42,180 nucleotides of DNA. It comes from a virus. How positions within the stretch are numbered: position 1 is the first letter of the stretch; each line of letters opens with the position of its first letter. The notes under the pieces are model-generated. The model was not told the origin of the DNA. It did no database searches and saw only the letters and a list, made by a program, of their open reading frames with translations. The stretch lies in IMG/VR virus record IMGVR_UViG_3300045988_015372, positions 1-42,180 of that record. One strand, 5' to 3'. Made by a program: the position numbers and the translations under genes. Below, piece by piece: positions 1,537 to 33,311 of the stretch.

Positions 1537-2433
1537 ATGCCGGGGAATATTCTGAGCGCGGACACGCAGTTTCCGAACTTTGCGGGGCAGGAAAGCCCCG
1601 CAGAGCAGATCAGGACGATCCGAAATTACCTCTACATGCTGCTGGAACAGCTGCGGTATACGCTGAACAACCTCGACGCCGGGAACTTCAACACCGAAGG
1701 ACTGAAAGAGATTCAGGATGCGATCTCGCAGCCGATTTTGAAGCAGCTCTCTGACACGGACGGGAATCTCGCAGAGCTTCAGTTTACGGCGGCGGGCCTC
1801 GCCTCCCGCGTGAGCAGCAACGAGGGCGATATTTCGCAGCTGGAGCAGACGGCGCAGGGACTGAGCAGCCGCGTCGGGGATGCGGAGGGCAATATCTCGT
1901 CCTTGCAGCAGACCGCGAACGGGCTTTCTTCCAGAGTGTCCAGCGCCGAAGGGAATATCTCTTCCCTTCAGCAGACCGCGAACGGGCTTTCTTCCCGCGT
2001 GAGCAATGCAGAGGGGAGCATTTCAAGTCTGAGCCAGACGGCCAGCGGACTGGAGACGCGCGTTGCAAACGCCGAAGGGGCCGTCTCCACGGTGAGCCAG
2101 AAGGTGAACGGCGTGACCGTCACGACCGGGTACGGACAAACCTTCTTGGCGGGCGACCGGATCGTCATGTCATCGAACGTCAACAACTACATGGCGATTG
2201 GGGCGAATGGCCTCGAAGTGTGGATCAACGGTATGATGAAGGCCCTGATTGGGCAGACATACGGAGCGGACAACTATTCTGTGATCCTCGGCAACACAAA
2301 TCCGGCAGTCGTTCAGAAGATTTATGACGGCAGCAATCTGATGTGGGTCGGAAACGAGGCAAAAACGTGCGGAATTATGTTTAATTTCAGCGCTGGAACA
2401 TATCAATTCTATGGAACGAAGGTGGGAACATGA
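1537..2433 (+). CDS. Virion/fiber-associated protein with about six 20-aa tandem repeats (SSRVxxAEGNISSLQQTANGL)
   Basis: Start overlaps the upstream stop (TGAcATG). The repeats are 60 bp at nucleotide level, between about 1790 and 2110. Confidence 0.6.
   Translation: MPGNILSADTQFPNFAGQESPAEQIRTIRNYLYMLLEQLRYTLNNLDAGNFNTEGLKEIQDAISQPILKQLSDTDGNLAELQFTAAGLASRVSSNEGDISQLEQTAQGLSSRVGDAEGNISSLQQTANGLSSRVSSAEGNISSLQQTANGLSSRVSNAEGSISSLSQTASGLETRVANAEGAVSTVSQKVNGVTVTTGYGQTFLAGDRIVMSSNVNNYMAIGANGLEVWINGMMKALIGQTYGADNYSVILGNTNPAVVQKIYDGSNLMWVGNEAKTCGIMFNFSAGTYQFYGTKVGT
1790..2110 (+). repeat. About 5-6 tandem copies of a 60-bp repeat inside CDS 1537..2433
   Basis: The unit ...gcagcagaccgcgaacgggctttcttcc... 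recurs directly, and the encoded 20-aa unit repeats with it. Confidence 0.7.
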
Positions 2434-4025
2434 GTTTTACACTACCGGCAATGAGCTATGCGGACGGCATCAAGAAGTTTTCGACGGTGCAGTTTGGCGG
2501 ATATAACCACAATTTAGGCTATGGCGACGGGACGATCTGGGACGAGAAGAACATGACGAGCGATCTCTTCCCGATCCTCTCCCCCAGAAAGGCCCGGTAT
2601 CTGCGGAGGACTTTGACAGCGTTTCATGGGATGTACGCCCACGACGGACTTTACTATGTGGATGGGACGACGCTCTATCTTGACGGGGCAGCAAAGCTGA
2701 CCGGTCTTTCAGACACGGAGAAGGTCATGGCGAACCTCGGGGCCTATCTGGTGATTTTGCCGGACAAGGTGTGGTACAACCGCCTCGACGGAAGCCACGG
2801 GAACATTGAGCAGAGCGTGTTGAACAAGGCATGCACCATCAAAAACGGAACGTATGGCGGCGAGGCCGCCGACGCAAACACCATTGTGTGTGACAGCGTA
2901 AACTTCGAGAATTACTTCAAGGCCGGGGATGCGATCTCCATCACAGGTGCGACAAAGCATCCTGAGAACAACACCGGCGAGGGCGTCTATCTGGTCGTCC
3001 GGGAGGTGGACGGGCATGAGCTGCGGTTCTATGAGAACACGTTCACCATTGCTGAAAACGGCGACACGGAGACGTTGAGCTTCAAGCGCGAAATGCCGGA
3101 TCTGGAGTTCCTCTGCGAGAACGAAAACCGGCTGTGGGGCTGCAAGGGAAACACGATCTACGCCTCGAAGCTGGGCGACGTGAGAAACTGGAACGTGTTT
3201 GACGGACTGGCCTCGGATTCCTACGCGGCGAGCGTGGGCAGCGAGGGTGATTTCACAGGATGTGTGAGCTATCTCGGCTATCCCTGCTTCTTCAAGGAGG
3301 AATCCATCTACAAGGTCTACGGCTCGAAGCCGAGCAACTTTCAGGTGATGGGAAGCGCAAATCTCGGCGTGGCGAAGGGCAGCGGACAGAGTCTCGCGGT
3401 CGCTGGGGAGACGTTGTTCTATCTGTCCCGCGCGGGGATCGTGGCCTATTCGGGCGGAATACCGCAGAACATTTCCGCCGCGTTCGGCACAGACCGGTAT
3501 CAGAACGCCGTGGGCGGCTCTGACGGGCGGAAATACTACGTCAGCATGAAAGGCTCTGACGGCTGGCGCATCTTCGTGTATGACACGGAAAAGAGCATGT
3601 GGAACGCCGAGGACGGCACAGAGGCGCAAGGCTTTGAATGGAGCGGCGGCGAGCTTTACATGGCGGCGGGCGGGAAACTCTGGGTATGCGGAAATCCGAT
3701 CTCCGCGACGGGGGTGAAAGAGGATTCCGTTTCTGCTATGGTGGAGTTTGGGGATTTCATTGAGAGCAGTCCGAATAAAAAGGGACACGGGAAGGTGCAG
3801 ATCCGCGTAGAGCTGGAGGCCGGGGCGGAACTGAGCCTTTCCCAGCAGTTTGACAGCAATGGGACGTGGGTCTTGGTGAAGAAGCTGACGGCGACTGCGA
3901 AGCGGAGCTATTACCTCTCTACCCTGCCCCGCAGATGCGACCATTTCAAAATCAAGCTTGAAGGAACCGGCGTATGGCGGCTTTATTCGCTGGTGCGCGA
4001 GAGCTACATCGGCAGCGAATTATAA
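2430..4025 (+). CDS. Hypothetical virion structural protein (531 aa)
   Basis: ATGA overlap with the upstream gene. Long ORF with genome-typical GC3-rich codon usage. No recognisable motif. Confidence 0.6.
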   Translation: MSFTLPAMSYADGIKKFSTVQFGGYNHNLGYGDGTIWDEKNMTSDLFPILSPRKARYLRRTLTAFHGMYAHDGLYYVDGTTLYLDGAAKLTGLSDTEKVMANLGAYLVILPDKVWYNRLDGSHGNIEQSVLNKACTIKNGTYGGEAADANTIVCDSVNFENYFKAGDAISITGATKHPENNTGEGVYLVVREVDGHELRFYENTFTIAENGDTETLSFKREMPDLEFLCENENRLWGCKGNTIYASKLGDVRNWNVFDGLASDSYAASVGSEGDFTGCVSYLGYPCFFKEESIYKVYGSKPSNFQVMGSANLGVAKGSGQSLAVAGETLFYLSRAGIVAYSGGIPQNISAAFGTDRYQNAVGGSDGRKYYVSMKGSDGWRIFVYDTEKSMWNAEDGTEAQGFEWSGGELYMAAGGKLWVCGNPISATGVKEDSVSAMVEFGDFIESSPNKKGHGKVQIRVELEAGAELSLSQQFDSNGTWVLVKKLTATAKRSYYLSTLPRRCDHFKIKLEGTGVWRLYSLVRESYIGSEL

Positions 4026-5347: not shown

Positions 5348-8300
5348 ATGGCAAAGTGGAAACGGAGCGGCGCGGATGCTCTGCGGGAATATGAACAGTC
5401 CAGCAACTATGTCGGAAGCATCGGCGTAACACCACTGAATGAAAGAAGCACGTCTGAGGCCGGAGGAAAGTGGAAGCGGAGCGGGGCTGACGCGCTGCGC
5501 GAATATGAGCAGTCCAGCAGCTTCCCGCAGACCCTTCAGGTGCGGAAATATAACGCGGAAGATCGGAACTATGACCAGTTCGCGGCTGAAAGGTACTCCG
5601 CGCAGGTGAACGCGCAGCGCCGTGACACGAACCGGCACTATCAGGAACAGGTCAACGCAGCGGCACAGGCTTTTGACAATTACCGCCGTTACAGTTCGTC
5701 CGGAGCGGCCAAGAACGCGGCACATCAGAACTATGAAGATGCAAAGTACCGGCAGGAACTCGCCCGGCAGCAGATGAGCGGGAGGCGGCTGACAGAAAGC
5801 GAGAAACATTTTCTGGAGAACCCGCGAAACATTGACCCGGACAGAGCGGCACGGGAAGAAGCGGCGAAGGAGCGTGCCTCCCTGCCGAAGCTGGAGAACG
5901 AAACAGAGGAAATGCGGCGGCAGCAGATCCTGGGCAGGCAGTCCGAAGACCTCCAGAAGCAGATCGACGCGCTGACGCAGCAGGAAGAGGAACGGCGCAA
6001 GAACACCAGCCTGTGGGAGAAGATCGGGCGCGCACTCTCCCCGATCCGCTCGTTCCGGCAGGAAGAGAACGACGCAGAGGATGCTATTTCCAAACTACAG
6101 GAGCGGAAAGCCGAAGTCGACCGGCAGTATCAGATGGACGCGAACCAGTACAAGGTCTATCAGACATATCAGAAATCGGAGCGTCCGGAAGCGTACACAG
6201 CGGAGAATGTCGGAAATTACAAGCAGCGTCTGGCGGCACTGGCGAGCGTCTACGGGACGTGGACAAAGGAGCAGGAGCAGGAGGCGAAGGAAGCCATTGG
6301 AACGCAGAGCGGCGGGACGGGACTTCTGAGTGCAGAGAAAAACGTCTGGGCGTTTGCGCCGTATCAGGAAGCCGTGCGCAAAAACGACACGGAATCTGCC
6401 CGGCAGTGGGAGCAGATCTACAACGCACTCTATACGCGGCTTTACTCCGGACAGGAAGCTGTCACAAGTGGCCTGATGCAGGGCCTTGGATTTGAGGCGC
6501 TTGGAGACGTGCTGCTTCATACCTCCACGGAAATGGCGGACGAGGCGTATGAGAGATGGGCGGAGCAGAAGCAGAACTACGCCTATGCGCAGTCGGAACA
6601 CCCGTATCTTGCGAGCGGCGCGCGCGTTGCCGGTTCTCTGGCGCTGATGAGCGGCGTCGGCAAAGCGGCGGGCGCGGGGTTGGCTGCGACGGGATTGAAG
6701 ACCGGCAGCTTCTGGTTCAACGTGGCGCGCGGATCGCTGACGTTTGCGGGTGTAAACGCGATCCAGAATTCCGGTGCGCTGGCGACCGGGAACATCAGCG
6801 GCGGCGATTATTTGAAGAGCATCGCTGTGAGCGGCGCACAGGGCGCAGCGGGCAACATCGCGGGTGAGCTTGTCGGATCTGGACTTGCTACCGTGCTTCG
6901 CAAGAACGGCCTCATGACGCCGTTCTTCGAGTTCGTGCGTCAGACGGCCAGCAGCATGAGCAATGCGACGGTCAACCAGGCAATCGGATACGCGGCGGCG
7001 GACAAAAAGCCGACCGGGCAGGAGATCGCCGAAGGGCTTGTGACGTCCTTCCTGTTCAGCGCACTCAGCAGCGCGATTTCGACCTATGAGACGACGAACG
7101 CGCAGAAAGCGCGGATGCAGCAAGCCTATAACCAGATCGAGGCCAGCTATCAGGCGATGGCGGCGGGGACGGAGAACATGACGCCGGAGGCAAAGGCCCA
7201 GCGCGTGCAGCTCATTCTACAGCAGACGCAGAACCTCCGCGCGGCGACGGGCGAATATTACATCGCGGGCCAGCAGAAGGCCGTCAACAACCTCAACTCT
7301 GCGCTGGATGCGATTGAGGATTGGGCAAACAACTATCTGAATGGCTATCAGGCGGCAGCCGACGCCATGCAGCCCAAGACCGCGCTTCCGGGCGGCACGA
7401 CCGGACAGATCCCGAGTGCGCCGGCACAGCCTCCGGTCGACCCGAATCTGACGCAGGATGTCGCAAACGGCCTTCAGACCGCGATCACGCAGGGCGTGAT
7501 TCAGGCGGACACGCCGCAGCCCATGACGGGCGGAGACGCAGCGGCGGGCGCGGCACAGTCTGTAAGTCAGAATCTTCAGGCGCGGGGGCTGGACGCAAAA
7601 ACTGCGGATGCACTTGTGAAAGCGGCGACGGAAATGCAACAGGAGGCCGCGTCTGCGCCGTCAGGCTGGCAGAACGCCGCTCCCACGGAAACGGTCGCCC
7701 CGAAGCAGAACGCCGCGCAGACGCCCGCACAGGACGCGCAGGAAAGCACCGCCGTGAACACGAACCCGGCAGAGCACACAAAGGCGGAACAGGCCGTGAT
7801 CGAAGCATACAAGGCCAGTGCAGATGGGCAAATGCGCGGGTTCATCGAGAAGGTGCGCTCCCTGCAAAACAACGACTACAAAAATAAAATCAGCGCGGAC
7901 GTTCACACAGAAACGACACGCGCTGCGGACACCGCCGGAGAGCTGACCGGAACAGATACAAGCGGATTCAAAAATATCATCAAGGGGAACGCGGTACAGC
8001 ACATCGACAGGCGGCACGGTGCAAACGGAAGCGCAGATCATTCAATGGCAAACATTGATGATTTTTCTCGCATTGGGTTTGTACTGGACAACTTTACCGA
8101 TGCGGAGCTTTTACCGTTGAATCGCGTGGATGCGGAGACTGCAAAGCTGAGCCGGGAATGGATGAACAGCGACAACACGCAAGCGCCGCTTGTACGTTTC
8201 TCCATGCCGGTGAACGGTGTGTTCTATGTGGTCGAAGCGGTACCGTCCAGTAAGGCAAAGCGTCTGGCCGTCGTATCGGCGTACATCAGCAGGGAAAACA

Positions 8301-11300
8301 AAGAGAGCACCCTCAAGCAAGTGCTGAACCTGTCTGACACGACCGGCAGCGGTACGCCCGAAACGCCCCTTGCAATATTGGATGCTCCTGAAAAAAGCTT
8401 AGCACAAAACGGCGGAACTGTCAAGCAGACGGACGCGAGCACATTGTCTTCGATGGCGCAGACGCTTGGGAAGAGCGGGCAGAAAGCGATCTTCAAGGCA
8501 TACGACAGCAAGGCGGACACGGCGGAATACGCCGGGGAGTTTGTGAAGGTCTACAATGCGGCACGTGCCGGGAATGACCTTCCCGAGACGAAGACGTTAG
8601 AACCGTGGCAGAAGTACGCGGCGGAAACCGCCGGAAAGAATGACGCTGAAAAGGTTGAATCTATTGCGAAGAGCGAAAAACCGGCGTATACTGAGGACAA
8701 AAACAGCGTGCAATATGTCTCTTCCCTGCTTGAAAGCGTGAACACGGCCAACACGGACAATTACCGCTTCCGGATTCAGGATCGCGGTGACGGACAGTGG
8801 ATCGGGACGATCACGGGAAGGACGGAGACGGCCGGCACTGTTCCCGTGGAAAACGCACGGAAGCTGACATACACAAGTCCTACATATGCTTCGCGGCAGG
8901 AAGCTGTTGAAGACATTCTTGCGGTAGCTGGAAATAACAAACTTTTGACAGGAGGAACGAGCAATGAAATACAGAGCGTTTCTGACAGACAGGGAGTACC
9001 AGAGTCTTCCGTATCCGGGACAGGTGACGGCGGACTACTGGGCGGAGTTTCTGCCGAAGATGTGCAAAAGCCTGAAGGAGGAAGGCGAGCTGCTCCCGCT
9101 GTTGCAGCAGAAGGGGGAACGGCTGGCCGAGATGCAGGAAGACCTGATGAAACAGGGGCTGGCACAGGATCAGGCGTGGGAGTTCGTGAAGGAGGACATT
9201 TACAGCCTGCAACCGGAAGTGGACGAGGACACCGAGGCGTACAAGGAACGTCTCGAAGAGGAACTCCGGTATCAGTGGTTCATGTCACAGAGCGGGGCGG
9301 AGCGGGAGATTCCGTTCGAACAGTATCGGAAGAACCCGGAGAACATCGCACGGGCGAAGGAAATGATGGCGTACTGACGCCGGAAACGGCAAAGAAGCCA
9401 AGCGCAGACCTTTCGGCGACGGTTCAGCGGGAGATCAGGGAGAAGACGGCGGATTCCGTATCTCCGAAGGGCACGAACTACGTCATTCCGGAAGAGGGCC
9501 TGAAGCTGCCGAACGGCGAAAAGGCCCGCTATAAATCCAATGTTGCAGCCATTCAGACGCTTCGTGCGGTGATGAGCGAAAACCGTATGGCGACGCCGGA
9601 GGAACAGGCGGTGCTTGCGCGGTATGTTGGATGGGGCGGAATTCCGAACGCCTTTGACAGCCACAAGGAAGATTGGGCAAAGGAGTACCGGCAACTGAAG
9701 GGATTGCTCAGCGAATCGGAATGGAAAGCCGCGATGCAGTCCACGACGAACGCGCATTTCACGTCTGTGGAAGTGATCCGCGCGATGTATCACGGGCTTG
9801 AATCGCTTGGCTTTACGGGTGGCCGTGTGCTGGAACCGTCGTGCGGCGTCGGCAATTTTGCCGGGGCCATGCCCGCTTCCCTTTTGCCGAATGTGAAAAG
9901 CCTGACGATGGTGGAACTGGATGAAGTGACCGGCAACATTGCAAAGGCGCTTTATCCGAACGCGAAGGTCATGGTTCAGGGATTTGAAACGGCGGTGATC
10001 CCGGACAACTACATGGATCTCGCCATTGGCAATGTGCCGTTCGGGAACTATGCGATCTTCGACAAAGCCTATCCAAAGGCCGTGACAAACTCCATTCACA
10101 ACTATTTCTTCGCAAAGTCCATTGATAAGGTGCGTCCGGGCGGCGTACTGTGCTTTATCACGTCGCGCTATACGATGGATGCAAGAGACAGCTCCGTGCG
10201 CGAGTACATGATGCAGCGGGCCGACCTGCTCGGCGCGATCCGTCTGCCGGACACTGCGTTCAAGGCCAATGCCGGAACGGACGTTGTGACGGATATTCTG
10301 GTGTTTAAGAAGCGCCCGGCCGGAACAGCATACGCCGGAGAGACATTCCGTGACGTGGACTATTATCATCAGGATAAGGGCATTTGGGAGCAGACGAACG
10401 GATATTTCCGGAACCATCCGGAAATGGTGCTCGGCACGGTAGAGAAGTCTGGGACGATGTATCGCGCGAACGGACTGACCGTGAAAGCGAAGCCGGGAAA
10501 CCTCGGGAAGCAGATCGAAAAAGCGTTCTCGCAGATCACCGGACGCATGGACTACACGGCGAATCCGACGCAGGCCGAAATTCAGGCGGAAGTCCGCAAA
10601 GAAATCCGCTCGGCCAAGAGCAAGGCGAAGAACGGAAGTTTTGTTTCTGAGGGCGGAAAGCTGTATCAGAATCAGGACGGCGAGCTGGTGCGGCTGGATC
10701 TGAGCGCAAAACAGGCGGAAGTGCTTCAGAGCGCGATCTCTCTTCGGGATACCGGACGGGAACTGCTGGCCCTTCAATTTGACAACGCCCCGGCGGAGCA
10801 GATCGAGGCAGCGCGGGCAAAACTGAATGAAGTGTACGATAATTTCGTACAGAAAAACGGCCCAATGAACAATCCGGCAAACAAAAAAATCATCCAGCAG
10901 GATGCGGATGCGCCGTTCATCCTTGCGCTGGAAAACTATGACGCGAAAGCCAAGACAGCGGAAAAGGCCGCGATCTTTACGAAGAACACCATTACGCCAC
11001 ATGAGATCGTGAGCCACGTTGACACGGCTGCGGACGGCATTGCGGCGTCGATCAACGAGACGGGCGGCGTGGATATTCCGATGATTGCACGGCTTATGGG
11101 AACGGACGAGAAGGCCGTGGAGCGGCAGCTTGCGGCGCAGGGTCTGGCCTATAAGCAGGCGGACGAGAGCTGGCAGCCGGCGCAGATGTATCTTTCCGGC
11201 AACGTTCGGGCAAAGCTGAAAGAGGCGCGCGGTCTGGCGAACATCGACCCGGCGTATGAGACAAACGTAAAGGCGCTGGAGAAGGTCGTCCCGGCGGATA

Positions 11301-14300
11301 TTCCTGCACAGGATATTTCCGTCCGGCCGGGCGCGACGTGGATTCCACCGCGTGTATATGCTGATTTTGCCGCTGAAATCCTCGGCAGCAGGAATAGCGG
11401 CAGGAGAAGCGCAATCGATGTGACGTACAGCCCGATCACGGGGACATACAAGGTGGACTATGGAGCAAGCGGGAGATATCTTCGCGGAAACTCGGCGGAC
11501 TCCACAGAATATGGCGCAGAGGGAAAGACCTTTGTGCAGATTTTTGAAGCGGCGCTCAACAGCAAGGATCTCAAGGTCTACTATCCGCACGGCAAGGACG
11601 AGAAAGCCGTATTGAATCCAAAGGCGACGATTGCCGTCAAGGAAAAGAAGAACAAGATCCTTTCAAAATTCCAGGAATGGATGTGGAGCGACGAGAACCG
11701 GATCAAAGAATATGGGCCGCTTTACAATGATCTCTTCAACTGTATGGCGATTCCGAATTATGACGGCTCGGAGCTGAAGATCGACGGCCTGTCCGCAGGC
11801 TTTACGCTGCGGGAGCATCAGGCAAATGCGGTGCAGCGGATCATCATGTCCGGCGGCAATACGCTCCTTGCGCATGGAACCGGCGCGGGCAAGACGCTTG
11901 AAATGGCCTCGGCGGCAATGAAGCTGCGGCAGATCGGCGCTGTAAAAAAGCCGATGATCATTGTCCCAAAGAATTTGCTTGGACAGTGGGAGAGGGAGTT
12001 TAGAAGCTACTACCCGGCGGCGAAGCTGCTGGTTCCGGCAGAAAATGACTTCACCCCGGCCAACCGGAAAACCTTCGCGAATAAGGTCGCGACCGGGGAT
12101 TATGATGCGGTCATCATCACATATGAGCATTTTGAACGGATTCCGCTCTCCAAACAAGCGCAGGCGAGGTATTATCAGGAACAGGTCGACCAGATCATTG
12201 CAGCGCAGGAGGAGGCCAAGAAACAGCAGACCGGAAAAAACTTCACGGTGAAGCAGCTGGCGAAAAAGCGTGCAGAGCTGGAAGCGAAGATCAAAGGTCT
12301 CAGTGATGTGGCACGGGACGAGGACAACATTGATTTCGAAAGTCTCGGCGTGGACAGCCTGTTCGTAGACGAGGCGCACAACTTCAAAAACCTGTTCTAT
12401 ACGACGCAGATGTCTGACGTGGCGGATCTTGGAAATAAGAACGGCAGCAAGCGCGCGAGCGACCTTTATATGAAGGTGCGCTATCTGCAAGGGTTGAACG
12501 GCGGACGTGGTGTCGTGTTTGGGACGGCAACGCCTGTTATGAACTCTGTGGTTGAAATGTATGCCATGCAGAGCTATTTGCAGGGCGATCTTCTGAAGCA
12601 GAAGGGCATCAACAGCTTTGACGCATGGGCCAGCGAGTTTGGCGAAGTGGTCGACATTAACAAGATGAAGGCCGGCGGAGACGGTTATGAGACGAAGCAG
12701 TCCATGAGCCGGTATCGGAACCTCGGCGAATTGCAGCAGCTTTTCCGCAGCTTTGCCGATGTTGTGACGCAGGCGCCGGGGTTGAAGCTGCCGAAAGTCA
12801 GAACCGGTGGCCCCATTGTGGTGGAGTGCGACCCTTCCAAGGCACAGACGGAATATCTCAGCGAGATCGGCAAGCGAGCTGACAATATCCGCACAGGCCG
12901 TGTGGACGTGAAGGACGACAACATCCTGAAGGTCTACGGCGACGGGAAAAAAATGAGCTACACGCAGCGCATGATCGACCCGAAGCTCGGCTACGAAGAG
13001 GGCGGCAAGATTCTGAAATGCGTGGACAATGTGCTCAAAGAATACCGGGCCAGCGAAGGGAACCGAGGAACGCAGCTTATTTTCTGTGATCGTGGCGTCC
13101 CTGGCGGGCAGGACGAAAAGAACGGCATTTTCCTTTATCGTGACATCAAAGATCTGCTGGTCAAGGGCGGAATTCCGGAGAATGAGATCGCGTATGCACA
13201 GAGCTACAAGACGGACAACGCGAAATCAAAAATGCAGGAGATGGTCAACGACGGAACGATCCGCGTCCTCATCGGTTCGACGCAGGCGATGGGAACCGGC
13301 CTGAACATTCAGAAACGAGCCGTGGCCATGCATGAGCTGAACGCGCCAGACCGCCCCGGCGACATTGAACAGAACCGGGGGAGAATTGTCCGTCAGGGAA
13401 ACACGAACCCGGAAGTGTCGATCTACACCTACATCACGAAGAAAACCTTTGACAGCCGTCAATGGGACAACCTGAAGCGCAAGGGCGCGTTCATCCATCA
13501 GATCATTGCGGGCGATTACAACGGAAGAACCGCAGACGGCGACGGCGACTTCTCCGCCAGCGCAGCGGAAATCGCGGCGATTGCGTCGGACAACCCACTG
13601 ATTCTGGAACAGAACGAAATCTCGCAGAAAATAAACCGGCTGGAAGCTCTTGCATCTTCGCACATCAAGGAAGTGCAGGAGGCTAAGCGGAAGGTGATGG
13701 AGCTGCCGCAGACCATCGGGCGGTTTGAAACGATCCGCGGCAATTTGAAAGCCGACATTTCTGCACGGCAGGATTCCGGCGGCGATAAGTTCCGCGCAAC
13801 CATTCTTGGACGGAATTACAAGAAGCGTGCAGATGCGGGCGAGGCGATCAATCAGGCGGTTTCCTCGAGAATCGATATGACGGCGGAGGCAAGCAGCGCG
13901 AAAATCGGCGAATTTGCCGGATTCGACGTGTATGCGGACAACCACGGCGGCGCGTATCTGCAAGGCTCCGGCACGTATTCGTTCGCTGTCAACCGGGACA
14001 GCGTTGAAGGCACGGTACGTTCGATGGAAAATGTGCTGAAAACGTTTGAAGGGCGATTGGAGCAGACGGAGCGCAGCTTGTCCGACCGAAAGAACGATCT
14101 TACAAAGTATGAGCAGATTGCAAAGTCTCCTTTTGAACAGCAGAAGGAGCTTGACAATCTCCGCGCCAGAGAAGACGAGATCATGTCGATCCTGAATCCG
14201 AAGGATGAACAGGGCACATTCGTTGCGGACGATGGGGTGGAAAAGCTGGTGGAACGTTCGGCCGGAGACGCCGCAGCGGATCACAGCGCGGAATGGACGG

Positions 14301-17300
14301 CGACGCGCGTCGGAGACGAGAAGCAGACCCCGAAACCCCTGAGTGAGATCATCGCCGGGATCGAGCATAATTTCGGGATCAACATTACGACCGGGCACGC
14401 GCGGGGCAGAGTGCGCGGGCAGTATTCCAAGCTGGACAACGGCATCCGCACGAAGATCACAAACGATCTGCCGACCATCTCTCATGAGCTGGGACACGCG
14501 CTGAACCGCGAATACGGATTTACCGGGAAACTGACCGACGCAATGCGCAGCGAACTGAAAAACGGTCTCGGGGATCTGAAGGACGAATATAAGCAGAGCA
14601 AATGGATTAGCGAAGGACTTGCGGAATTCCTCCGGAAGTATCTGCAAAACTCCGAAACGGCGGCGATTGATTATCCGGAATTCACAAAGCATTTTCTGAA
14701 CAGCCTTTCTCAGCGAGACAGGGCGCTTGTGGAAAACCTCGCAGATGAAGTCAATGCCTATTATTCGCTCGACGCGGACACGGCGCAGAGCGCGATCCGG
14801 TTGAGAGAAGATCGTGTGCCGACGGGCGACACGACCGGCGACAAGCTCAGAGCGGAAGCGAGTGTGCTTTATCAGGCGTGGGTAGACAGCCTGCACGGGA
14901 TCAAGCTGCTCGACGAAGCGACCGGAACGAATACTTATCGGCTGGCGACAAACGCTGCCTATTCTGACGCAATGGCCGGGCAGATCATCACGGGAAATCT
15001 GACAGATGCGAATGGACAATATGTGGGGCCGGGACTGAAAGCGGCACTGCAAGGGATCAACCTGAAGAACAAGGCCGAATACCGGGCGTTTGGCGAGTAT
15101 CTTGTGGTACGGCATGGGCCGGAGCGGCTGGCGGAAGGAATGCGCGTATTTGCAGATGACCGCAAGAACTCCACGGCATTCATGAACCGGCGCGCGGCAG
15201 AGCTGGAGCAGCAATATCCGGCGTTCCACGATGCGGCAGAGCGGCTTTATGTGTTCCAAGACCAGCTCAAGGAAACGTGGCTCGTTGGAACTGGACTGAT
15301 CTCGGAAGAAACCGGCGAGGAATGGAGCAAGCGGTGGAAGCATTACGTTCCGTTCAATCGCGCCATGCCGCAGGGGCAGGGCGGCGCGAAGCGCGGATTT
15401 GCCAACCAGCAGAACCCGATCAAACGCGCCAGAGGCAGCGGCAGAGATCTTGTTCATCCTGTGGACAACATCATTTCCAACATCGTCAAGGTCGTCAATG
15501 CGGGCGTCCGCAACAACGTAATGCGCAGGATCACAGACGAGGCGCAGCGCGTGGGCGCGGATGCAGTATTCCTTGAAAAAATCCCCACGCCGATGCGCGG
15601 GACGCGCGTAAATCTCACGGGCGTGAAGAGTGACCTGATGGATCGGATTACGGAGAAGGGATGGGCGAATGCCAACGATTTTGGGGAAATTGTAGCCGAC
15701 ATTGATGATTACATGATGCAATTCCGGCGCGGGAAAGCGTTCGGAGACGTTGTTACCGTCCTGAAAAACGGCAAGCCGGAGTTCTGGAAGGTCAACGACC
15801 CCCTGCTGCTCCAATCGATCACGGAAATGTCCCCGTCAAAGGTGAATGGGCTTGTCGATGCGATTGGAAAAATGTCGCACTTCATGACCTCCAACATCAC
15901 AGGAGACAATATCATCTGGTCGATCTTCTCCAACCTTCCGCGAGATCTCGGGACGCTGATGGTCTATGCGAAAGAACCGAACCGTTTCAAACTGCTCAAA
16001 GAGATCGGCGCTTCGTATGTCAACAAGCTCAAAGGCGACAGCGCGAACCCGCTTTATCTGGAATACCTCGCAATGGGCGGCGGCAAGGCGAGCTATTACA
16101 GCACCGACCGCGACGTTGCGAAGAAAGCGCGCAAGGAGCTGGCCGGAAAGTTCACGCTCAACCCGCTGGATTGGATCTCGTATCTGGGCGATATGATCGA
16201 ACAGGGGCCGCGCTTCGCTACCTATAAGTGTCTCCGGGAACGCGGCGTTGATCCGCAGACGGCATTTTATGAAGCAATGGATGTGACAACGAATTTCCGG
16301 CGCGGCGGCGCAACGTCCAGACAGGTCAACAAGTTCGTCCCGTTCTTCAATGCCGGCGTGCAGGGCATCGACAAGCACGTCCGGTTCCTGACCGGGCAGG
16401 ATGCACCACCGGAGCAGAGAAAGCGCGTCGTTCGCAACCGCATGATCGCCTATTTTGCCGCTTCAGCTGGGATCGCGGCGCTGTTCTACCTCATCAACAA
16501 CCGTGACGAGGAAAGCAAGAAGGACTATCAGCAACTTTCCACGTACACGAAGAACAGCTATTTTTGCATCCCGATGGGCGATGGGAAATATTTTGTTATC
16601 CCGAAGCCGCGCGACCTTGCGGTTCTCACCTCTGCGATGGAATCCGGATTGGAGCTTGGCGTCGGCGGAAACAAGCACGCCTTTGATGGATTCTGGAGCT
16701 ATGCAGCGGCCAACTATCTGCCGAATGTGGCAGCCGATCTCGCGCAGGGAGATTGGAAAGGGGCACTCGGCGGACTTGGGATCGTCGGCATCGGAACGTC
16801 GATGGTTGCGAACCGCGATTTCCTCGGAAGGCCGATTGAATCCGCCGGCATGCAGTATCTTGAACCGAAAGACCGGTATAATGACCGGACGTCAAAACTG
16901 GCTTACTGGGCCGGGCAGGCGTTCAATGTCTCCCCACAGATGACGGATTATTTCTTCAATAACGTGCTCGGCGGATGGTGGAAGTATCAGAAAGCCCTGT
17001 TCCCGGTTGGAGAAGAAAATCGGGATTTGACGCTTGGCGTGAAGAACACCTACGTCAAGGACAACCAGTATTCGCAGGATCTTGTAAACTGGCTTTACGA
17101 CAAGGCGGAGAAAACGTCGCAGACTTCGAAATCCGACCCGGACAACATTTCCAAGAAGATCACGGCCAAGACGGACAGCAACATGACCACCTTCTATGGG
17201 AACTACAACAAACTCTCGAAGAGCGATACGAAGTCCACGGCGGCGCGCGGGACGCGGCAGCTGGTGCTTGATATGATCCGCGAGTATCAGAAAGCGACGG

Positions 17301-17818
17301 ACAACAAGAGCCAGACCGATGCGGAGAAGGAAGTCTATGCGATCTGCGAGGCGCACGGCGATGTGGACATTCTTCCGGGCGTGATGAATACCAGCATCAA
17401 AGATTCGGATGGCAAGGAATACACGCTGAGCGCGGTGGATTATGTGGAGTTCCAGACGGACTATCTCGGGATCTATTGGGAAAGCGTGTCTCAGACGCTG
17501 GACGGCGTGAAGGGCGACGCGCAGCGATATTCCGTATTGAAATCCGTCAAGGACGCTGCGAAGGAACAGGCGAAGGTGCGGGCGCTCAAACGGATGGGCG
17601 CAAAGACTACCACAGCTTGGGGAGATAAGTATTCCGGCGCAAGCACATACGATGTGGCATACTTCAAGGCCAACGCAGACGCAGACGGGAATGGATCGAT
17701 TTCTCAGGCGGAGGCTGAAGCGCTTCTGCGGAAGATGGATCTGACAAACGCGGAACGCGCGGATCTATGGGCCGCGACAAACAAGGCATGGGCAGAGAAG
17801 AACAATCCATTCCGATAA
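5348..17818 (+). CDS. Giant polyvalent virion protein (4156 codons as a single ORF). Coiled coils, Gly-rich hydrophobic TMP-like segment, PBECR-like nuclease region, N6-adenine MTase, SNF2 helicase, HExxH zincin-like peptidase, C-terminal EF-hand loop
   Basis: RBS AAGGAGG precedes ATG 5348. MTase motifs: LEPSCGVGNFAG (9826-9865) and DLAIGNVPFG (about 10016-10045). Helicase motifs: LAHGTGAGKT (about 11880), LFVDEAHNFKN (12360-12392) and QNRGRIVRQGN (about 13370-13400). HELGH at 14485-14499. EF-hand DADGNGSISQAE at 17678-17713. The frame is not convincingly coding between about 8950 and 9378 (see nested ORF). Confidence 0.6.
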   Translation: MAKWKRSGADALREYEQSSNYVGSIGVTPLNERSTSEAGGKWKRSGADALREYEQSSSFPQTLQVRKYNAEDRNYDQFAAERYSAQVNAQRRDTNRHYQEQVNAAAQAFDNYRRYSSSGAAKNAAHQNYEDAKYRQELARQQMSGRRLTESEKHFLENPRNIDPDRAAREEAAKERASLPKLENETEEMRRQQILGRQSEDLQKQIDALTQQEEERRKNTSLWEKIGRALSPIRSFRQEENDAEDAISKLQERKAEVDRQYQMDANQYKVYQTYQKSERPEAYTAENVGNYKQRLAALASVYGTWTKEQEQEAKEAIGTQSGGTGLLSAEKNVWAFAPYQEAVRKNDTESARQWEQIYNALYTRLYSGQEAVTSGLMQGLGFEALGDVLLHTSTEMADEAYERWAEQKQNYAYAQSEHPYLASGARVAGSLALMSGVGKAAGAGLAATGLKTGSFWFNVARGSLTFAGVNAIQNSGALATGNISGGDYLKSIAVSGAQGAAGNIAGELVGSGLATVLRKNGLMTPFFEFVRQTASSMSNATVNQAIGYAAADKKPTGQEIAEGLVTSFLFSALSSAISTYETTNAQKARMQQAYNQIEASYQAMAAGTENMTPEAKAQRVQLILQQTQNLRAATGEYYIAGQQKAVNNLNSALDAIEDWANNYLNGYQAAADAMQPKTALPGGTTGQIPSAPAQPPVDPNLTQDVANGLQTAITQGVIQADTPQPMTGGDAAAGAAQSVSQNLQARGLDAKTADALVKAATEMQQEAASAPSGWQNAAPTETVAPKQNAAQTPAQDAQESTAVNTNPAEHTKAEQAVIEAYKASADGQMRGFIEKVRSLQNNDYKNKISADVHTETTRAADTAGELTGTDTSGFKNIIKGNAVQHIDRRHGANGSADHSMANIDDFSRIGFVLDNFTDAELLPLNRVDAETAKLSREWMNSDNTQAPLVRFSMPVNGVFYVVEAVPSSKAKRLAVVSAYISRENKESTLKQVLNLSDTTGSGTPETPLAILDAPEKSLAQNGGTVKQTDASTLSSMAQTLGKSGQKAIFKAYDSKADTAEYAGEFVKVYNAARAGNDLPETKTLEPWQKYAAETAGKNDAEKVESIAKSEKPAYTEDKNSVQYVSSLLESVNTANTDNYRFRIQDRGDGQWIGTITGRTETAGTVPVENARKLTYTSPTYASRQEAVEDILAVAGNNKLLTGGTSNEIQSVSDRQGVPESSVSGTGDGGLLGGVSAEDVQKPEGGRRAAPAVAAEGGTAGRDAGRPDETGAGTGSGVGVREGGHLQPATGSGRGHRGVQGTSRRGTPVSVVHVTERGGAGDSVRTVSEEPGEHRTGEGNDGVLTPETAKKPSADLSATVQREIREKTADSVSPKGTNYVIPEEGLKLPNGEKARYKSNVAAIQTLRAVMSENRMATPEEQAVLARYVGWGGIPNAFDSHKEDWAKEYRQLKGLLSESEWKAAMQSTTNAHFTSVEVIRAMYHGLESLGFTGGRVLEPSCGVGNFAGAMPASLLPNVKSLTMVELDEVTGNIAKALYPNAKVMVQGFETAVIPDNYMDLAIGNVPFGNYAIFDKAYPKAVTNSIHNYFFAKSIDKVRPGGVLCFITSRYTMDARDSSVREYMMQRADLLGAIRLPDTAFKANAGTDVVTDILVFKKRPAGTAYAGETFRDVDYYHQDKGIWEQTNGYFRNHPEMVLGTVEKSGTMYRANGLTVKAKPGNLGKQIEKAFSQITGRMDYTANPTQAEIQAEVRKEIRSAKSKAKNGSFVSEGGKLYQNQDGELVRLDLSAKQAEVLQSAISLRDTGRELLALQFDNAPAEQIEAARAKLNEVYDNFVQKNGPMNNPANKKIIQQDADAPFILALENYDAKAKTAEKAAIFTKNTITPHEIVSHVDTAADGIAASINETGGVDIPMIARLMGTDEKAVERQLAAQGLAYKQADESWQPAQMYLSGNVRAKLKEARGLANIDPAYETNVKALEKVVPADIPAQDISVRPGATWIPPRVYADFAAEILGSRNSGRRSAIDVTYSPITGTYKVDYGASGRYLRGNSADSTEYGAEGKTFVQIFEAALNSKDLKVYYPHGKDEKAVLNPKATIAVKEKKNKILSKFQEWMWSDENRIKEYGPLYNDLFNCMAIPNYDGSELKIDGLSAGFTLREHQANAVQRIIMSGGNTLLAHGTGAGKTLEMASAAMKLRQIGAVKKPMIIVPKNLLGQWEREFRSYYPAAKLLVPAENDFTPANRKTFANKVATGDYDAVIITYEHFERIPLSKQAQARYYQEQVDQIIAAQEEAKKQQTGKNFTVKQLAKKRAELEAKIKGLSDVARDEDNIDFESLGVDSLFVDEAHNFKNLFYTTQMSDVADLGNKNGSKRASDLYMKVRYLQGLNGGRGVVFGTATPVMNSVVEMYAMQSYLQGDLLKQKGINSFDAWASEFGEVVDINKMKAGGDGYETKQSMSRYRNLGELQQLFRSFADVVTQAPGLKLPKVRTGGPIVVECDPSKAQTEYLSEIGKRADNIRTGRVDVKDDNILKVYGDGKKMSYTQRMIDPKLGYEEGGKILKCVDNVLKEYRASEGNRGTQLIFCDRGVPGGQDEKNGIFLYRDIKDLLVKGGIPENEIAYAQSYKTDNAKSKMQEMVNDGTIRVLIGSTQAMGTGLNIQKRAVAMHELNAPDRPGDIEQNRGRIVRQGNTNPEVSIYTYITKKTFDSRQWDNLKRKGAFIHQIIAGDYNGRTADGDGDFSASAAEIAAIASDNPLILEQNEISQKINRLEALASSHIKEVQEAKRKVMELPQTIGRFETIRGNLKADISARQDSGGDKFRATILGRNYKKRADAGEAINQAVSSRIDMTAEASSAKIGEFAGFDVYADNHGGAYLQGSGTYSFAVNRDSVEGTVRSMENVLKTFEGRLEQTERSLSDRKNDLTKYEQIAKSPFEQQKELDNLRAREDEIMSILNPKDEQGTFVADDGVEKLVERSAGDAAADHSAEWTATRVGDEKQTPKPLSEIIAGIEHNFGINITTGHARGRVRGQYSKLDNGIRTKITNDLPTISHELGHALNREYGFTGKLTDAMRSELKNGLGDLKDEYKQSKWISEGLAEFLRKYLQNSETAAIDYPEFTKHFLNSLSQRDRALVENLADEVNAYYSLDADTAQSAIRLREDRVPTGDTTGDKLRAEASVLYQAWVDSLHGIKLLDEATGTNTYRLATNAAYSDAMAGQIITGNLTDANGQYVGPGLKAALQGINLKNKAEYRAFGEYLVVRHGPERLAEGMRVFADDRKNSTAFMNRRAAELEQQYPAFHDAAERLYVFQDQLKETWLVGTGLISEETGEEWSKRWKHYVPFNRAMPQGQGGAKRGFANQQNPIKRARGSGRDLVHPVDNIISNIVKVVNAGVRNNVMRRITDEAQRVGADAVFLEKIPTPMRGTRVNLTGVKSDLMDRITEKGWANANDFGEIVADIDDYMMQFRRGKAFGDVVTVLKNGKPEFWKVNDPLLLQSITEMSPSKVNGLVDAIGKMSHFMTSNITGDNIIWSIFSNLPRDLGTLMVYAKEPNRFKLLKEIGASYVNKLKGDSANPLYLEYLAMGGGKASYYSTDRDVAKKARKELAGKFTLNPLDWISYLGDMIEQGPRFATYKCLRERGVDPQTAFYEAMDVTTNFRRGGATSRQVNKFVPFFNAGVQGIDKHVRFLTGQDAPPEQRKRVVRNRMIAYFAASAGIAALFYLINNRDEESKKDYQQLSTYTKNSYFCIPMGDGKYFVIPKPRDLAVLTSAMESGLELGVGGNKHAFDGFWSYAAANYLPNVAADLAQGDWKGALGGLGIVGIGTSMVANRDFLGRPIESAGMQYLEPKDRYNDRTSKLAYWAGQAFNVSPQMTDYFFNNVLGGWWKYQKALFPVGEENRDLTLGVKNTYVKDNQYSQDLVNWLYDKAEKTSQTSKSDPDNISKKITAKTDSNMTTFYGNYNKLSKSDTKSTAARGTRQLVLDMIREYQKATDNKSQTDAEKEVYAICEAHGDVDILPGVMNTSIKDSDGKEYTLSAVDYVEFQTDYLGIYWESVSQTLDGVKGDAQRYSVLKSVKDAAKEQAKVRALKRMGAKTTTAWGDKYSGASTYDVAYFKANADADGNGSISQAEAEALLRKMDLTNAERADLWAATNKAWAEKNNPFR
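8964..9377 (+). CDS. Alternative-frame ORF (137 aa) nested in the linker of the giant gene; acidic helical hypothetical protein
   Basis: In-frame stop TGA at 8946, then GGAGGA RBS and ATG 8964. Third codon positions are GC-rich like real genes here. Across the same span the giant-ORF frame translates to a G/R-rich string with AT-rich third positions. Confidence 0.5.
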   Translation: MKYRAFLTDREYQSLPYPGQVTADYWAEFLPKMCKSLKEEGELLPLLQQKGERLAEMQEDLMKQGLAQDQAWEFVKEDIYSLQPEVDEDTEAYKERLEEELRYQWFMSQSGAEREIPFEQYRKNPENIARAKEMMAY

Positions 17819-17825
17819 GAAAGAA

Positions 17826-17851
17826 TCCGGCGGGAAACCGCCGGATTTTCT
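17826..17851 (+). terminator. Rho-independent terminator after the giant gene
   Basis: Hairpin ccggcgg-gaaa-ccgccgg followed by attttctct. Confidence 0.65.
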
Positions 17852-17854
17852 CTG

Positions 17855-17891
17855 TTTACGGGGTGAAGCGCGTGTAATTTGCTGGTATGCT
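17855..17891 (+). promoter_or_regulatory. Late-operon promoter-like element A: TTTACGGGGTGAA-N18-TATGCT, upstream of the lysis cassette
   Basis: Exact 13-mer at 17855-17867, 18-nt spacer, TATGCT at 17886-17891. The same architecture occurs at 33353 and 37569. Confidence 0.55.
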
Positions 17892-17916: not shown

Positions 17917-18174
17917 ATGGAGACGTCGAAGAAGCTTCTGATTGGCAGCGCGTCGGCAAGCGCCGTTTGCATTATCCTGAATGTGCTCGGCGTGCTGAGT
18001 GTGGAGGTCACGTTGGCAGTCATCGGATTTGCGACGGCGATTGGGATGTTTTACCTCTGGAAGGCAAAGAATGAGAACAGAAGTAAATACGCAATCAAGT
18101 ACATCGAGAGTTTGCCGGAAACGTATACGGCAGAGGAAAAGGCACGTTTTTTGGAGATCGTGCTGAAAGACTGA
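17917..18174 (+). CDS. Small membrane protein with 2 TM helices (holin/antiholin candidate)
   Basis: RBS GGAGGTG precedes ATG 17917. Two hydrophobic helices in the N-terminal half. The ORF track start at 17887 sits inside the -10-like hexamer and was rejected. Confidence 0.55.
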   Translation: METSKKLLIGSASASAVCIILNVLGVLSVEVTLAVIGFATAIGMFYLWKAKNENRSKYAIKYIESLPETYTAEEKARFLEIVLKD

Positions 18175-18189
18175 AAGGAGTTACATACC

Positions 18190-18408
18190 ATGAAAATTGA
18201 TTGGAAACGCAAGCTGACTTCGAGAAAGCTGTGGGTGGCCGTGGCCGGTTTTGTGTCCGGCCTGATTTTGGCATTCGGCGGCGCAGAGAACACGGCACAG
18301 ATGGTCACGGGCGTCATCATGCAAGGCGCTTCTGTGCTTGGCTATCTGCTGGCCGAAGGTCTGACCGATGCAGCACACGTGGGTGACAACAATGGCACTG
18401 AAAATTAA
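18190..18408 (+). CDS. Holin (72 aa, two TM helices)
   Basis: RBS AAAGGAG. TM segments LWVAVAGFVSGLILAFGGA and VTGVIMQGASVLGYLLAEGL. Lies immediately upstream of the amidase. Confidence 0.7.
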   Translation: MKIDWKRKLTSRKLWVAVAGFVSGLILAFGGAENTAQMVTGVIMQGASVLGYLLAEGLTDAAHVGDNNGTEN

Positions 18409-19075
18409 CGACACGATACGGGCAACGAGAGTGGGCGGCCGGCGTACGCTCTCGGCTATCCGGGCCATTGTGTTCCACTACACTGCAAACACTGGCCAGC
18501 ATGCAACGGCGCTCGGGAACGCGCGGTATTTCGCGAACGGCAGCGAGGGACGCGCCGCTTCGGCCCATTACGTGGTTGATGAGGGGGACACCGTTTACCA
18601 GTGTGTGCCGCTGGATGTGGTTGCGTGGGCCGTGGGCGACGGCAGGAGCGGCAAATTCGGCAAGGTGTACAACAACTACAACACCGTCAGTATCGAGATG
18701 GTGAGCCACACAGACGCTACCGGCAAGTATTACATCCCGGAGGCGACGATGCGCAACGCCGCGCGGCTCTATCAGATGCTGCTGAAGCAGCTTCCGAACG
18801 TGCAAACCGCGATCCGGCACTATGACATTTCGATGAAGCTGTGTCCGCTGCCGCTGATTGACGAAACGAAGTGGGAAGCATTCAAGAAGCTCTTGGAGGA
18901 GGTGGACGAAGTGGTCACGAAAGCAAAGATGATCATAGACGGTAAGGAGATCGAGGTCGAACGCATTTTGAAGGACGGCACGAATTACATTAAAATTCGC
19001 GACATCGCAAAGGCGCTGGATCTTGAAGTGTCGAACAAGGGCAATGTCCCGATTTTGAATCACAAAGGAGGCTAA
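18392..19075 (+). CDS. Endolysin: N-acetylmuramoyl-L-alanine amidase (Amidase_2/PGRP type) with a C-terminal copper-amine-oxidase-N-like wall-binding domain
   Basis: Motifs HYTANTG, HYVVD, CVPLDVVAWAVGD and VSIEMVSH. C-terminal segment DGKEIEVERILKDGTNYIKIRDIAKALDLEV. Start chosen at MALKIND (ATG 18392); the ORF opens at 18368. Confidence 0.8.
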   Translation: MALKINDTIRATRVGGRRTLSAIRAIVFHYTANTGQHATALGNARYFANGSEGRAASAHYVVDEGDTVYQCVPLDVVAWAVGDGRSGKFGKVYNNYNTVSIEMVSHTDATGKYYIPEATMRNAARLYQMLLKQLPNVQTAIRHYDISMKLCPLPLIDETKWEAFKKLLEEVDEVVTKAKMIIDGKEIEVERILKDGTNYIKIRDIAKALDLEVSNKGNVPILNHKGG

Positions 19076-19078
19076 ACG

Positions 19079-19288
19079 ATGCGGCGCGGCTGGCCAGACT
19101 TGCCGCGCAGCGAGTGGGAGCGTTTGATCTCTGAATGGATTCTAAATGATTCGTACCGCGACATTATGCGGCGCTACCTCTGCGACGGATGGACGCAGGA
19201 ACGGATCGCGGAGCACGAGGGGCTGTCCCTCAACGGTACAAAAAACATCATCAAGCGGTGCACGAACGCGCTTTCCGCGCACATGTAA
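19079..19288 (+). CDS. Sigma-70 region-4-like HTH mini-protein (69 aa)
   Basis: RBS AAAGGAGG overlaps the amidase 3' end. Segment YRDIMRRYLCDGWTQERIAEHEGLSLNGTKNIIKRCTNAL resembles sigma-70 region 4 / LuxR-type HTH. Confidence 0.5.
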   Translation: MRRGWPDLPRSEWERLISEWILNDSYRDIMRRYLCDGWTQERIAEHEGLSLNGTKNIIKRCTNALSAHM

Positions 19289-19290
19289 AC

Positions 19291-19327
19291 AGGCAGACAC
19301 GGCATGCGCTGTGTCTGCCTCTTTTTT
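19291..19327 (+). terminator. Rho-independent terminator
   Basis: Stem aggcagacac / gtgtctgcct with a 10-nt loop, followed by cttttttg. Confidence 0.7.
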
Positions 19328-32793: not shown

Positions 32794-33003
32794 ATGGACT
32801 ACTGGCACAAGGACTGGAAATGTCCATTCTACAAGTACAACGAGCAGCGAAAGGTCTGCTGCGAGGGCGGATGCCGGGTACAGTTTGTGGACAAGTCCTC
32901 TGCGGGGCGGTATATGTCCCGTTACTGCGCGTCCTTCCGCTATGCGGACTGTACGATCGCGCAGTCCAGAATCGAAATTTACGAAGGAGTAAACAGAACA
33001 TGA
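32794..33003 (+). CDS. Cys-rich small protein (69 aa)
   Basis: RBS GGAGGTAG precedes ATG 32794. Product MDYWHKDWKCPFYKYNEQRKVCCEGGCRVQF. Confidence 0.45.
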   Translation: MDYWHKDWKCPFYKYNEQRKVCCEGGCRVQFVDKSSAGRYMSRYCASFRYADCTIAQSRIEIYEGVNRT

Positions 33004-33311
33004 CCAAAATGCAGGAGATTCGAGAACTGAAAAGTAAAATTCAGGGACTTCGGAACCAGAATGAAGGGATGCGCGACAAGTGCATTCGCTTAGAGAAAGA
33101 ATGTGCAGAACTCAGGGCCGGTGCAAAACAGGTGACGGGACTGGTGGATGCGATTCTTGCGCTGATGGCGCGTGAGAATGGCGTGGAGTTTGACGGTGAG
33201 TATGAGCTGTTTTTCCGCAGCGGAGATCTGCGGCAGTATATGGAACACTGGAAGGTGGAGACAACGAAAAGCGAAGGTGTGCTCAAAGTGCGCGCAACCA
33301 AGAAAGAATAA
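33000..33311 (+). CDS. Coiled-coil hypothetical protein (103 aa)
   Basis: ATGA overlap with the upstream gene. Start MTKMQEIRELKSKIQGLRNQNEG. Confidence 0.45.
   Translation: MTKMQEIRELKSKIQGLRNQNEGMRDKCIRLEKECAELRAGAKQVTGLVDAILALMARENGVEFDGEYELFFRSGDLRQYMEHWKVETTKSEGVLKVRATKKE

Follow-up and report, generated by a model that had tools for sequence, protein, structure and literature searches.

We analysed a viral DNA of 42,180 nucleotides (nt), IMG/VR record IMGVR_UViG_3300045988_015372 at its full length (hereafter the window), which is the circularly permuted genome, ~42 kb, of a temperate Oscillospirales phage and which carries three copies of a 13-nt element, TTTACGGGGTGAA, each followed at a fixed distance by a −10-like hexamer; the three sites very probably form a class of phage late promoters. 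The packaging and head genes are ordered terS (33434), terL, portal, Prp-like protease, scaffold (37744) and major capsid protein (MCP). The block of virion genes crosses from the window end to position 1 and extends to 17818; it is followed by lysis genes at 17917-19075, by a 69-aa open reading frame (ORF) with a helix-turn-helix (HTH) at 19079-19288, and by a strong terminator. The lysogeny module, consisting of an integrase and a cI-like repressor, lies on the − strand; the divergent early promoters at ~24.4-24.6 kb are canonical (TTGACA-17-TATACT and TTGACA-17-TAATAT), and the long rightward early operon ends at 33311. Site A of the element lies ahead of the lysis genes, site B ahead of the packaging and portal genes, and site C ahead of the scaffold and capsid genes. 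The sites and the hairpins that accompany them are as follows, with the −10 regions scored by a position weight matrix (PWM):

17822-17849, + strand: intrinsic-terminator-like hairpin closing the virion-gene unit, 5 nt ahead of element A
17855-17867, + strand: specificity element of putative late promoter A, an exact copy of TTTACGGGGTGAA with core ACGGGGTGAA, upstream of the holin/endolysin cassette
17883-17891, + strand: predicted extended −10 of promoter A, TGGTATGCT, TGgTATGCT, 15 nt past the element (25.1 bits)
19291-19320, + strand: strong terminator closing the lysis unit
33321-33345, + strand: terminator-like hairpin closing the early operon, 7 nt ahead of element B
33353-33365, + strand: specificity element of putative late promoter B, an exact copy, upstream of terS
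33381-33389, + strand: predicted extended −10 of promoter B, TGCTATGCT, TGcTATGCT (26.9 bits)
37569-37581, + strand: specificity element of putative late promoter C, an exact copy ahead of scaffold/MCP that begins directly past the Prp-like gene's stop codon
37597-37605, + strand: predicted −10 region of promoter C, CATCATACT, CATACT without TG (16.7 bits)

The exact 13-mer starts at 17855, 33353 and 37569, on the + strand only, and no further copy with up to two mismatches is present on either strand of the window. These positions, the 18-nt gap to the hexamer and the hexamers themselves (TATGCT, TATGCT and CATACT) had been reported in an initial annotation made from the sequence, and we recovered all of them. 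The bipartite pattern TTTACGGGGTGAA-N18-YATRCT has 3 matches in the window vs. 0 in 100 dinucleotide-preserving shuffles, and TTTACGGGGTGAA is the sole 13-mer with at least three copies outside coding tandem repeats or collagen-like repeats. The 15-nt spacers of sites A, B and C are mutually unrelated, and the three sites are therefore not copies of one longer duplicated segment, in agreement with the earlier remark that the motif is not a simple repeat.

At site A, the −10 region ends at 17891 and the start codon ATG is at 17917 (an ATG at 17887 sits within the −10 hexamer and is not the real start); at site B, it ends at 33389, with the ATG of terS at 33434; and at site C, it ends at 37605, with the ATG of the scaffold gene at 37744. 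These start codons bear out the earlier placement of the sites ahead of the lysis cassette, the terS unit and the scaffold unit, and the two copies described as lying just past terminator hairpins are those of sites A and B; upstream of site C, there is merely a weak AT-rich inverted repeat (37550-37571). A sequence GCT(G)GTATGCTGGA said to be common to A and B is indeed shared, and is better described as the extended −10 plus GGA. The −10 regions are of the sigma-A type, with a TAnnnT hexamer that is preceded by TG at A and B and lacks it at C. No TTGACA-like −35 was found at 17 ± 1 nt from these hexamers, where the register gives GTGAAN, which agrees in 3 of 6 positions and in which just TGA is −35-like; a consensus promoter scan called the early promoters at 24431 and 24563, which have TTGACA, and did not call sites A-C. 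The position of the −35 is overlapped by the element, which is asymmetric and single-copy and whose core ACGGGGTGAA spans about −43 to −33, at a fixed 15-16 nt from the TG.

All three copies are present in 5 IMG/VR contigs that are 95-98% identical to the window. To cover more distant phages, we fetched 80 related loci via terL (63-100% identity). At ~80% terL identity, where terS is ~34%, Prp ~46% and scaffold ~55% identical, exact copies of the core ACGGGGTGAA are found ahead of terS and in the Prp-scaffold interval, each with a spacer of 15-16 unrelated bases that leads to TGnTATGCT, TGcTACACT or TGaTAGGCT. In ~18 related Oscillospirales phage lineages, (A/T)CGGGG(T/C)GAA, an unrelated spacer of 15-16 nt and TGnTAYGCT occur at the same positions. 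More distant lineages have an element variant of their own at the same two positions, identical within each genome and followed by N15-16 and TGnTAnnnT. The element types, by lineage (L), are:

GGGGTGAA (last 8 nt of the element): window family, L016, L019, L022, L103-L105
GGGGCGAA (GGGGCGTA in L108): L024-26, L035-48, L106-L108
GGGGAGAA: L068-L086 group
GTGGTGAG: L054-58
TGAGCGAA: L023
TTGGCAAG / TGGGCAAG: L027, L029
TTRACGAY: L062/L117

We compiled 35 sites, of which 30 have a 15-nt and 5 a 16-nt spacer; TG is present in 30 of the 35, A-11 and T-7 are present in all 35, and the −10 hexamers have the consensus TAYGCT. Of these bases, A-11 and T-7 are the ones that flip out, and TG contacts sigma region 3. 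A motif scan of related phage genomes, which the initial annotation had proposed as a check, found the element kept at the expected positions and near-absent elsewhere: in 858 kb of related loci, the PWM matched 69 times on the gene strand, each time at one of the two expected positions, vs. twice on the − strand, a result that, with the PWM trained on the same sites, shows specificity and is not an independent discovery. Many lineages have an A/T-rich, UP-like tract just upstream of site C, and L105 has a third copy of the element ahead of its lysis genes, equivalent to site A. The literature that we searched holds no description of this promoter motif or of the Cys4 protein introduced below.

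Another 5 IMG/VR contigs (L092, L095-L097, L100) match ACGGGGTGAA-N15-TGNTATGCT and were rejected as one unrelated family: each has a single match in identical, coding-like surroundings and no homologues of window proteins, and ~1 chance family is expected for 18 specified bases. In the window itself there is one further, weaker match:

3706-3742, + strand: possible weak fourth site, CGACGGGGGTGAA-N15-TGCTATGGT, within ORF 2430-4025 (19.4 bits)

It lies ~230 nt ahead of the gene at 3974 and may be an internal booster promoter or a chance match; the relatives are identical there, and too similar for a test of conservation.

The conserved position, spacing and orientation of the element and its coordinated change within genomes strongly support the late promoter class with a dedicated factor that the initial annotation had proposed. 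That an asymmetric, single-copy element is rigidly spaced from the −10 points to a module physically coupled to RNA polymerase rather than to a dimeric regulator that could be placed freely. The element is uniform within a genome and differs between close phages, several of which derive from a single metagenome (3300045988), which argues for a co-evolving phage-encoded trans-factor and not for a common host factor; the factor that reads the element is thus probably encoded by the phage. The same annotation had left open an alternative sigma or a late activator, and here the sigma-A-type −10 (TGnTAYGCT) makes an activator or sigma-remodelling factor likelier than a complete alternative sigma.

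From these features we infer promoter activity, late timing and sigma-A dependence, and we consider it reasonably probable, on the whole, that the sites are late promoters with a sigma-A −10 and with a phage factor, for which Cys4 is the best candidate, at the element. Under this reading, host RNA polymerase with sigma-A would bind the extended −10 through the key bases T-12, A-11 and T-7, and productive initiation would need a phage factor from the early operon that reads the element. This factor would act in the manner of a class-II activator or sigma appropriator, by contacting sigma region 4 or taking its place. With their GC-rich −10 interior and poor −35, the late promoters would stay silent in the lysogen. 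Promoter B would drive terS-terL-portal-Prp, promoter C would drive scaffold-MCP and also, past an attenuator that is read through, the other virion genes, and promoter A would drive holin-endolysin. The best candidate for the factor would be Cys4 (32794-33003), a small protein with four cysteines, possibly together with the coiled-coil protein encoded at 33000-33311.

The initial annotation found no ArpU/RinA-sized activator evident, and this better candidate had been hidden by a mis-framed ORF call. Comparison of ORFs across lineages shows that the listed 163-aa ORF at 32820-33311 is a frame artefact over two real, overlapping genes:

32794-33003, + strand: candidate specificity factor, the 69-aa Cys4 protein (C10, C23, C45, C53; CPFY..CEGG..YCA..C), second-to-last gene of the early operon
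33000-33311, + strand: partner gene for a 103-aa coiled-coil protein, whose start overlaps the stop codon of Cys4 (ATGA)

Cys4 starts with MDYWHKDWKCPFYKY… and has a good ribosome-binding site (RBS). C10, C45 and C53 are invariant and C23 is nearly so, in the pattern CP[FY][FY]-x9-CEGG…F…YCA…C, and the protein is probably metal-binding. It has no match in Pfam, PHROG, NCBIfam or PDB, and the partner protein has none in Pfam, PHROG or NCBIfam; the Cys4 family comprises 1339 clusters at 50% identity, all unannotated and with no known fold. In the window, Cys4 and its partner are the last early genes, followed by the terminator and then by promoter B. In other lineages, the Cys4 gene lies 0.1-6.8 kb upstream, and a small partner gene is found 3′ of it in most relatives. 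Some near-identical relatives, namely L102 (2916-3826; from Clostridiales UBA11529), L006 and L008, have an insertion of ~1 kb between the partner gene and the terminator and promoter B, with two paralogue-like ORFs (147 and 156 aa), which makes this a moron-like variable slot.

Cys4 is the sole ORF family common to the whole lysis-to-terS region of the window, L101 and L105 (blastp E<1e-3). All motif-bearing lineages whose sequence extends far enough have the gene; L054-58 (including L056) at first seemed to have the motif without Cys4, and this exception was dropped when the gene was found ~6.8 kb upstream of terL. Conversely, all full-phage lineages that bear Cys4 have the element at the terS position, and two motif-less lineages lack Cys4 even in the 8.5-14 kb that lie farther upstream than the 6-kb flank. 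We also scanned genomes with an alignment of 6 Cys4 sequences as query: the 7 prophages in metagenome-assembled genomes found in this way all have the element at both the terS and the scaffold positions (7/7), and their hosts are Clostridiales UBA11529, Acutalibacteraceae, Oscillospiraceae, Oscillibacter and others. The element types form clean monophyletic clades on the Cys4 tree and not on the terL tree, in which the window groups with the TTGGCAAG-type phages. The partial Mantel correlation of element distance with Cys4 identity, given terL, is −0.34 (permutation p = 0.016), and that of element with terL, given Cys4, is −0.13 and not significant (p = 0.22). At the N-terminus, DYWHK is present in all GGGGTGAA lineages, and GYSH- or GFSS-type sequences are present in the GGGGCGAA/GGGGCGTA lineages. 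We tentatively put forward Cys4 as the late factor, an assignment that falls just short of probable.

Distant Cys4 homologues (P0048, P0122 and P0022) are found in ~10-kb chromosomal elements of Clostridia (L109-L113, L115-L116), where Cys4 is the first or second gene past a divergent repressor of the HTH_3 plus Peptidase_S24 (LexA/CI-like) type. The order in these elements is Cys4, small partner, terminase, P22-type portal, Prp (absent from L115/L116), scaffold, capsid and a few more genes, followed by host genes, and we saw no genes for tail, lysis, integrase or replication functions in them; we call them head-only elements. Repeated AGTTAAGGAAACTTAAC-like operators flank their canonical promoter, and each appears to be one sigma-A-driven operon. 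It is quite possible, if slightly less likely than the assignment in the phages, that Cys4 represents an unrecognised class of late-transcription specificity factors in gut Clostridia, in which a small metal-binding protein re-targets sigma-A polymerase to a co-evolving, lineage-specific element, and which has also been kept in the LexA/CI-controlled head-only elements.

Several points weigh against such a role for Cys4. A related packaging and head module is common to all motif-bearing phages, which phylogenetically confounds the co-occurrence with Cys4, and a packaging accessory protein would give the same pattern of co-occurrence. No late-type element is found within the head-only elements that carry Cys4 homologues; these elements are compatible with Cys4 as the sole early regulator, but one without a visible target.

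The initial annotation had pointed to another gene as the only sigma-like one:

19079-19288, + strand: 69-aa sigma-70 region-4-like HTH ORF, last gene of the lysis unit (Pfam Sigma70_r4, E=4e-4, under cutoff)

This ORF could be an LtrA-like activator whose HTH reads the element in the −35 region, and the Sigma70_r4-like LtrA family has been proven to activate late genes in Gram-positive phages (PMC3753634). The resemblance is carried by weak similarity to Sigma70_r4 and by NCBIfam sigma70-ECF/YlxM-like matches, but every family match is below its curated cutoff. A sigma-70-like promoter match at 18968-18996 could express the ORF separately, although it sits at the distal end of a late unit. 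A first tblastn comparison suggested that the ORF is absent from the sister phage c008792, and this was overturned by a homologue in the same slot; the homologue, however, is only 28% identical, in a pair of phages with three identical promoter elements and with structural genes 96-99% identical, and such divergence despite identical elements argues against this ORF reading the element. Nor is there any homologue in the complete lysis-terS region of L101 or L105, both of which bear ACGGGGTGAA. ORF 19079 is thus probably not the late factor, and we consider its LtrA-like role unlikely. Among the 18 window proteins scanned, a set that takes in a minority of the early and of the structural ORFs, there is no full sigma with regions 2 and 4, only this region-4-like fragment of 69 aa. 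In the post-lysis slot, L101 (1876-2904) and L105 (2497-3537) have a protein of 342-346 aa with an N-terminal HTH, transposase-like by eye, and L101 (3126-3422) and L105 (3814-4056) also have a separate HTH paralogue of its N-terminus (80-98 aa); these HTH proteins are unrelated to ORF 19079.

An equally improbable alternative is that a host alternative sigma or host regulator reads the element, with no dedicated phage factor. Such a reader would fit the finding that no phage protein linked to the motif has a recognisable sigma or DNA-binding fold, as well as the −10 interior TAYGCT, which is unusual for sigma-A; but the −10 retains the sigma-A hallmarks TG, T-12, A-11 and T-7, and the element type follows a phage gene. 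A host factor would, moreover, hold the element constant, whereas at least 8 variants, each uniform within its genome, are found among close phages, several of them from metagenome 3300045988.

The extended −10 promoters could also be intrinsically active, with the element serving as the operator of a late-gene repressor. Extended −10 promoters are known to function without a −35, and the −35 region that the element overlaps is a classic place for an operator. However, an asymmetric, single-copy element with rigid −10 spacing is typical of a module linked to RNA polymerase and not of a dimeric repressor site, nothing similar to the element is present at the cI/cro control region, and the linked Cys4 gene lies in the early lytic operon, outside the lysogeny module; we regard this explanation as very unlikely. 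That the sites are some other repeated cis element (a terminator-associated RNA, a packaging site or a recombination site) is hardly credible, because, although two copies abut terminator hairpins and some site-C variants can pair GGGG of the element with CCCC of the spacer (a hairpin that we considered as a general feature and rejected, as only these variants form it), the TGnTAnnnT at fixed distance, the strict orientation, the positions ahead of operons and the UP-like A/T tracts all fit a promoter, Rfam has no match in the window, and three copies speak against a pac or cos site.

For the favoured reading of phage-directed late promoters, the functionally closest known system is that of the Ltr proteins. 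RinA, ArpU, LtrA (Sigma70_r4), LtrB (DUF1492) and LtrC are small, lineage-specific late activators (Quiles-Puchalt 2013, PMC3753634); their binding sites are three 7-nt direct repeats ahead of a lone terS promoter, which serves a single late operon, and the genes of the known late activators close the early operon, a short way ahead of terS (PMC3753634). The candidate regulator gene in the window likewise lies at the end of the early operon, adjoining terS, and resembles the Ltr system in being small and phage-specific and in the swapping of regulator-plus-promoter cassettes between phages with similar packaging modules; late genes that are silent without their regulator, an Ltr trait, are what we propose here as well. 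The window differs in having no direct repeats of at least 7 nt within ~100 nt upstream of any site and in having instead one asymmetric element that overlaps the −35, at three promoters with terminators between the units, and Cys4 and its partner belong to none of the RinA, ArpU, Sigma70_r4, DUF1492 or LtrC families.

In architecture, the closest parallel is provided by the T4 middle promoters, which combine a MotA box with a sigma-70 −10 and at which sigma is appropriated by small phage proteins with the mediation of AsiA. Here too a host-type −10 is kept, and a phage-specific box at a fixed distance stands in for the −35. The sequence and position of the box differ, however, the host is a Firmicute and the phage temperate, and searches of Pfam, PHROGs and NCBIfam with the candidates scanned, a subset of the window ORFs, gave no annotated regulator family. 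The zinc-finger late activators P2 Ogr and P4 Delta resemble the candidate Cys4 in being phage proteins of ~70 aa with four cysteines, and they activate several late promoters, as is proposed for Cys4. Ogr sites are dyad-symmetric (TGT-N12-ACA) and centred near −55, whereas the element is asymmetric and located at −35, and Cys4 has no Ogr_Delta Pfam match and a different spacing of cysteines. In Actinobacteria, Wbl proteins such as WhiB7 bind region 4 of sigma-A, and by analogy only, a protein of this kind, small and with four cysteines, could dock onto sigma region 4 and contribute DNA specificity beside the −35; Cys4 has no sequence or fold match to WhiB-like proteins, its pattern is C-x12-C-x21-C-x7-C vs. 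C-x(n)-C-x2-C-x5-C in Wbl proteins, and the phylum is another one. Finally, with the extended −10 (TGn) sigma-A promoters of Firmicutes the sites share TGnTAnnnT with conserved T-12, A-11 and T-7, and they differ in the GC-rich TAYGCT interior and in the lineage-specific upstream element, which is not TTGACA.

Late-gene regulation is essentially unmapped for the abundant uncultured Oscillospirales phages of the human and animal gut, and the promoter grammar (A/T)CGGGG(Y)GAA-N15-TGnTAYGCT, with its lineage variants, makes late operons annotatable from metagenomic contigs. The analysis also nominates an unannotated protein family (the 1339 clusters) as a testable candidate, for which natural pairs of element and protein variants (T-type, GGGGTGAA, in the window and L016, and C-type, GGGGCGAA, in L036 and L106) exist for a specificity swap. 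If the proposed role is true, a mechanistically distinct family would join the known late activators of Gram-positive phages, and orthogonal promoter/activator pairs would become available for the engineering of gut Clostridia.

Two structured regions lie downstream of promoter C:

37606-37743, + strand: structured scaffold mRNA leader, in which GTCCTCCTG (37612-37620) pairs with CAGGAGGAAC (37694-37703)
40281-40314, + strand: strong 14-bp hairpin and T-run after scaffold-MCP-gp84, with the RBS and TTG start of the next gene following directly

The leader has a minimum free energy of −54.4 kcal/mol (z −3.1), and GTCCTCCTG, near the predicted 5′ end, resembles an anti-Shine-Dalgarno sequence. 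Just ahead of the RBS, a hairpin CACGGGGnCG…CCCGCGA (37712-37727) is kept in 9 lineages with two compensatory pairs. Past the −10 of site C, CTGATAYYGTCCTCCTG is also conserved; it holds a second TGnTAnnnT, in the window TGaTACTGT, 8 nt downstream of that −10. The hairpin at 40281-40314 is likely to be an attenuator within unit C that sets the ratio of capsid to other virion transcripts, and the rest of the virion block is most likely transcribed from site C through this attenuator.

At the end of the virion block, ~30% of the genome is taken up by a single ORF of 4156 aa (5348-17818, + strand), a large polyvalent protein with Pfam matches to LPD38 (7.7e-26), SNF2-related (2e-15) and ResIII, and with matches to an Eco57I-like methylase and a PBECR3 nuclease under the Pfam cutoffs. 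A collagen-like (G-x-y) repeat ORF at 40339-42180 runs off the end of the window and resumes at 1-1144 (+ strand), and repeats are common to 2-120 and 41.9-42.18 kb; the shared end repeats and the continuation of the ORF at position 1 fit a circularly permuted contig and a long collagen-like fibre protein.
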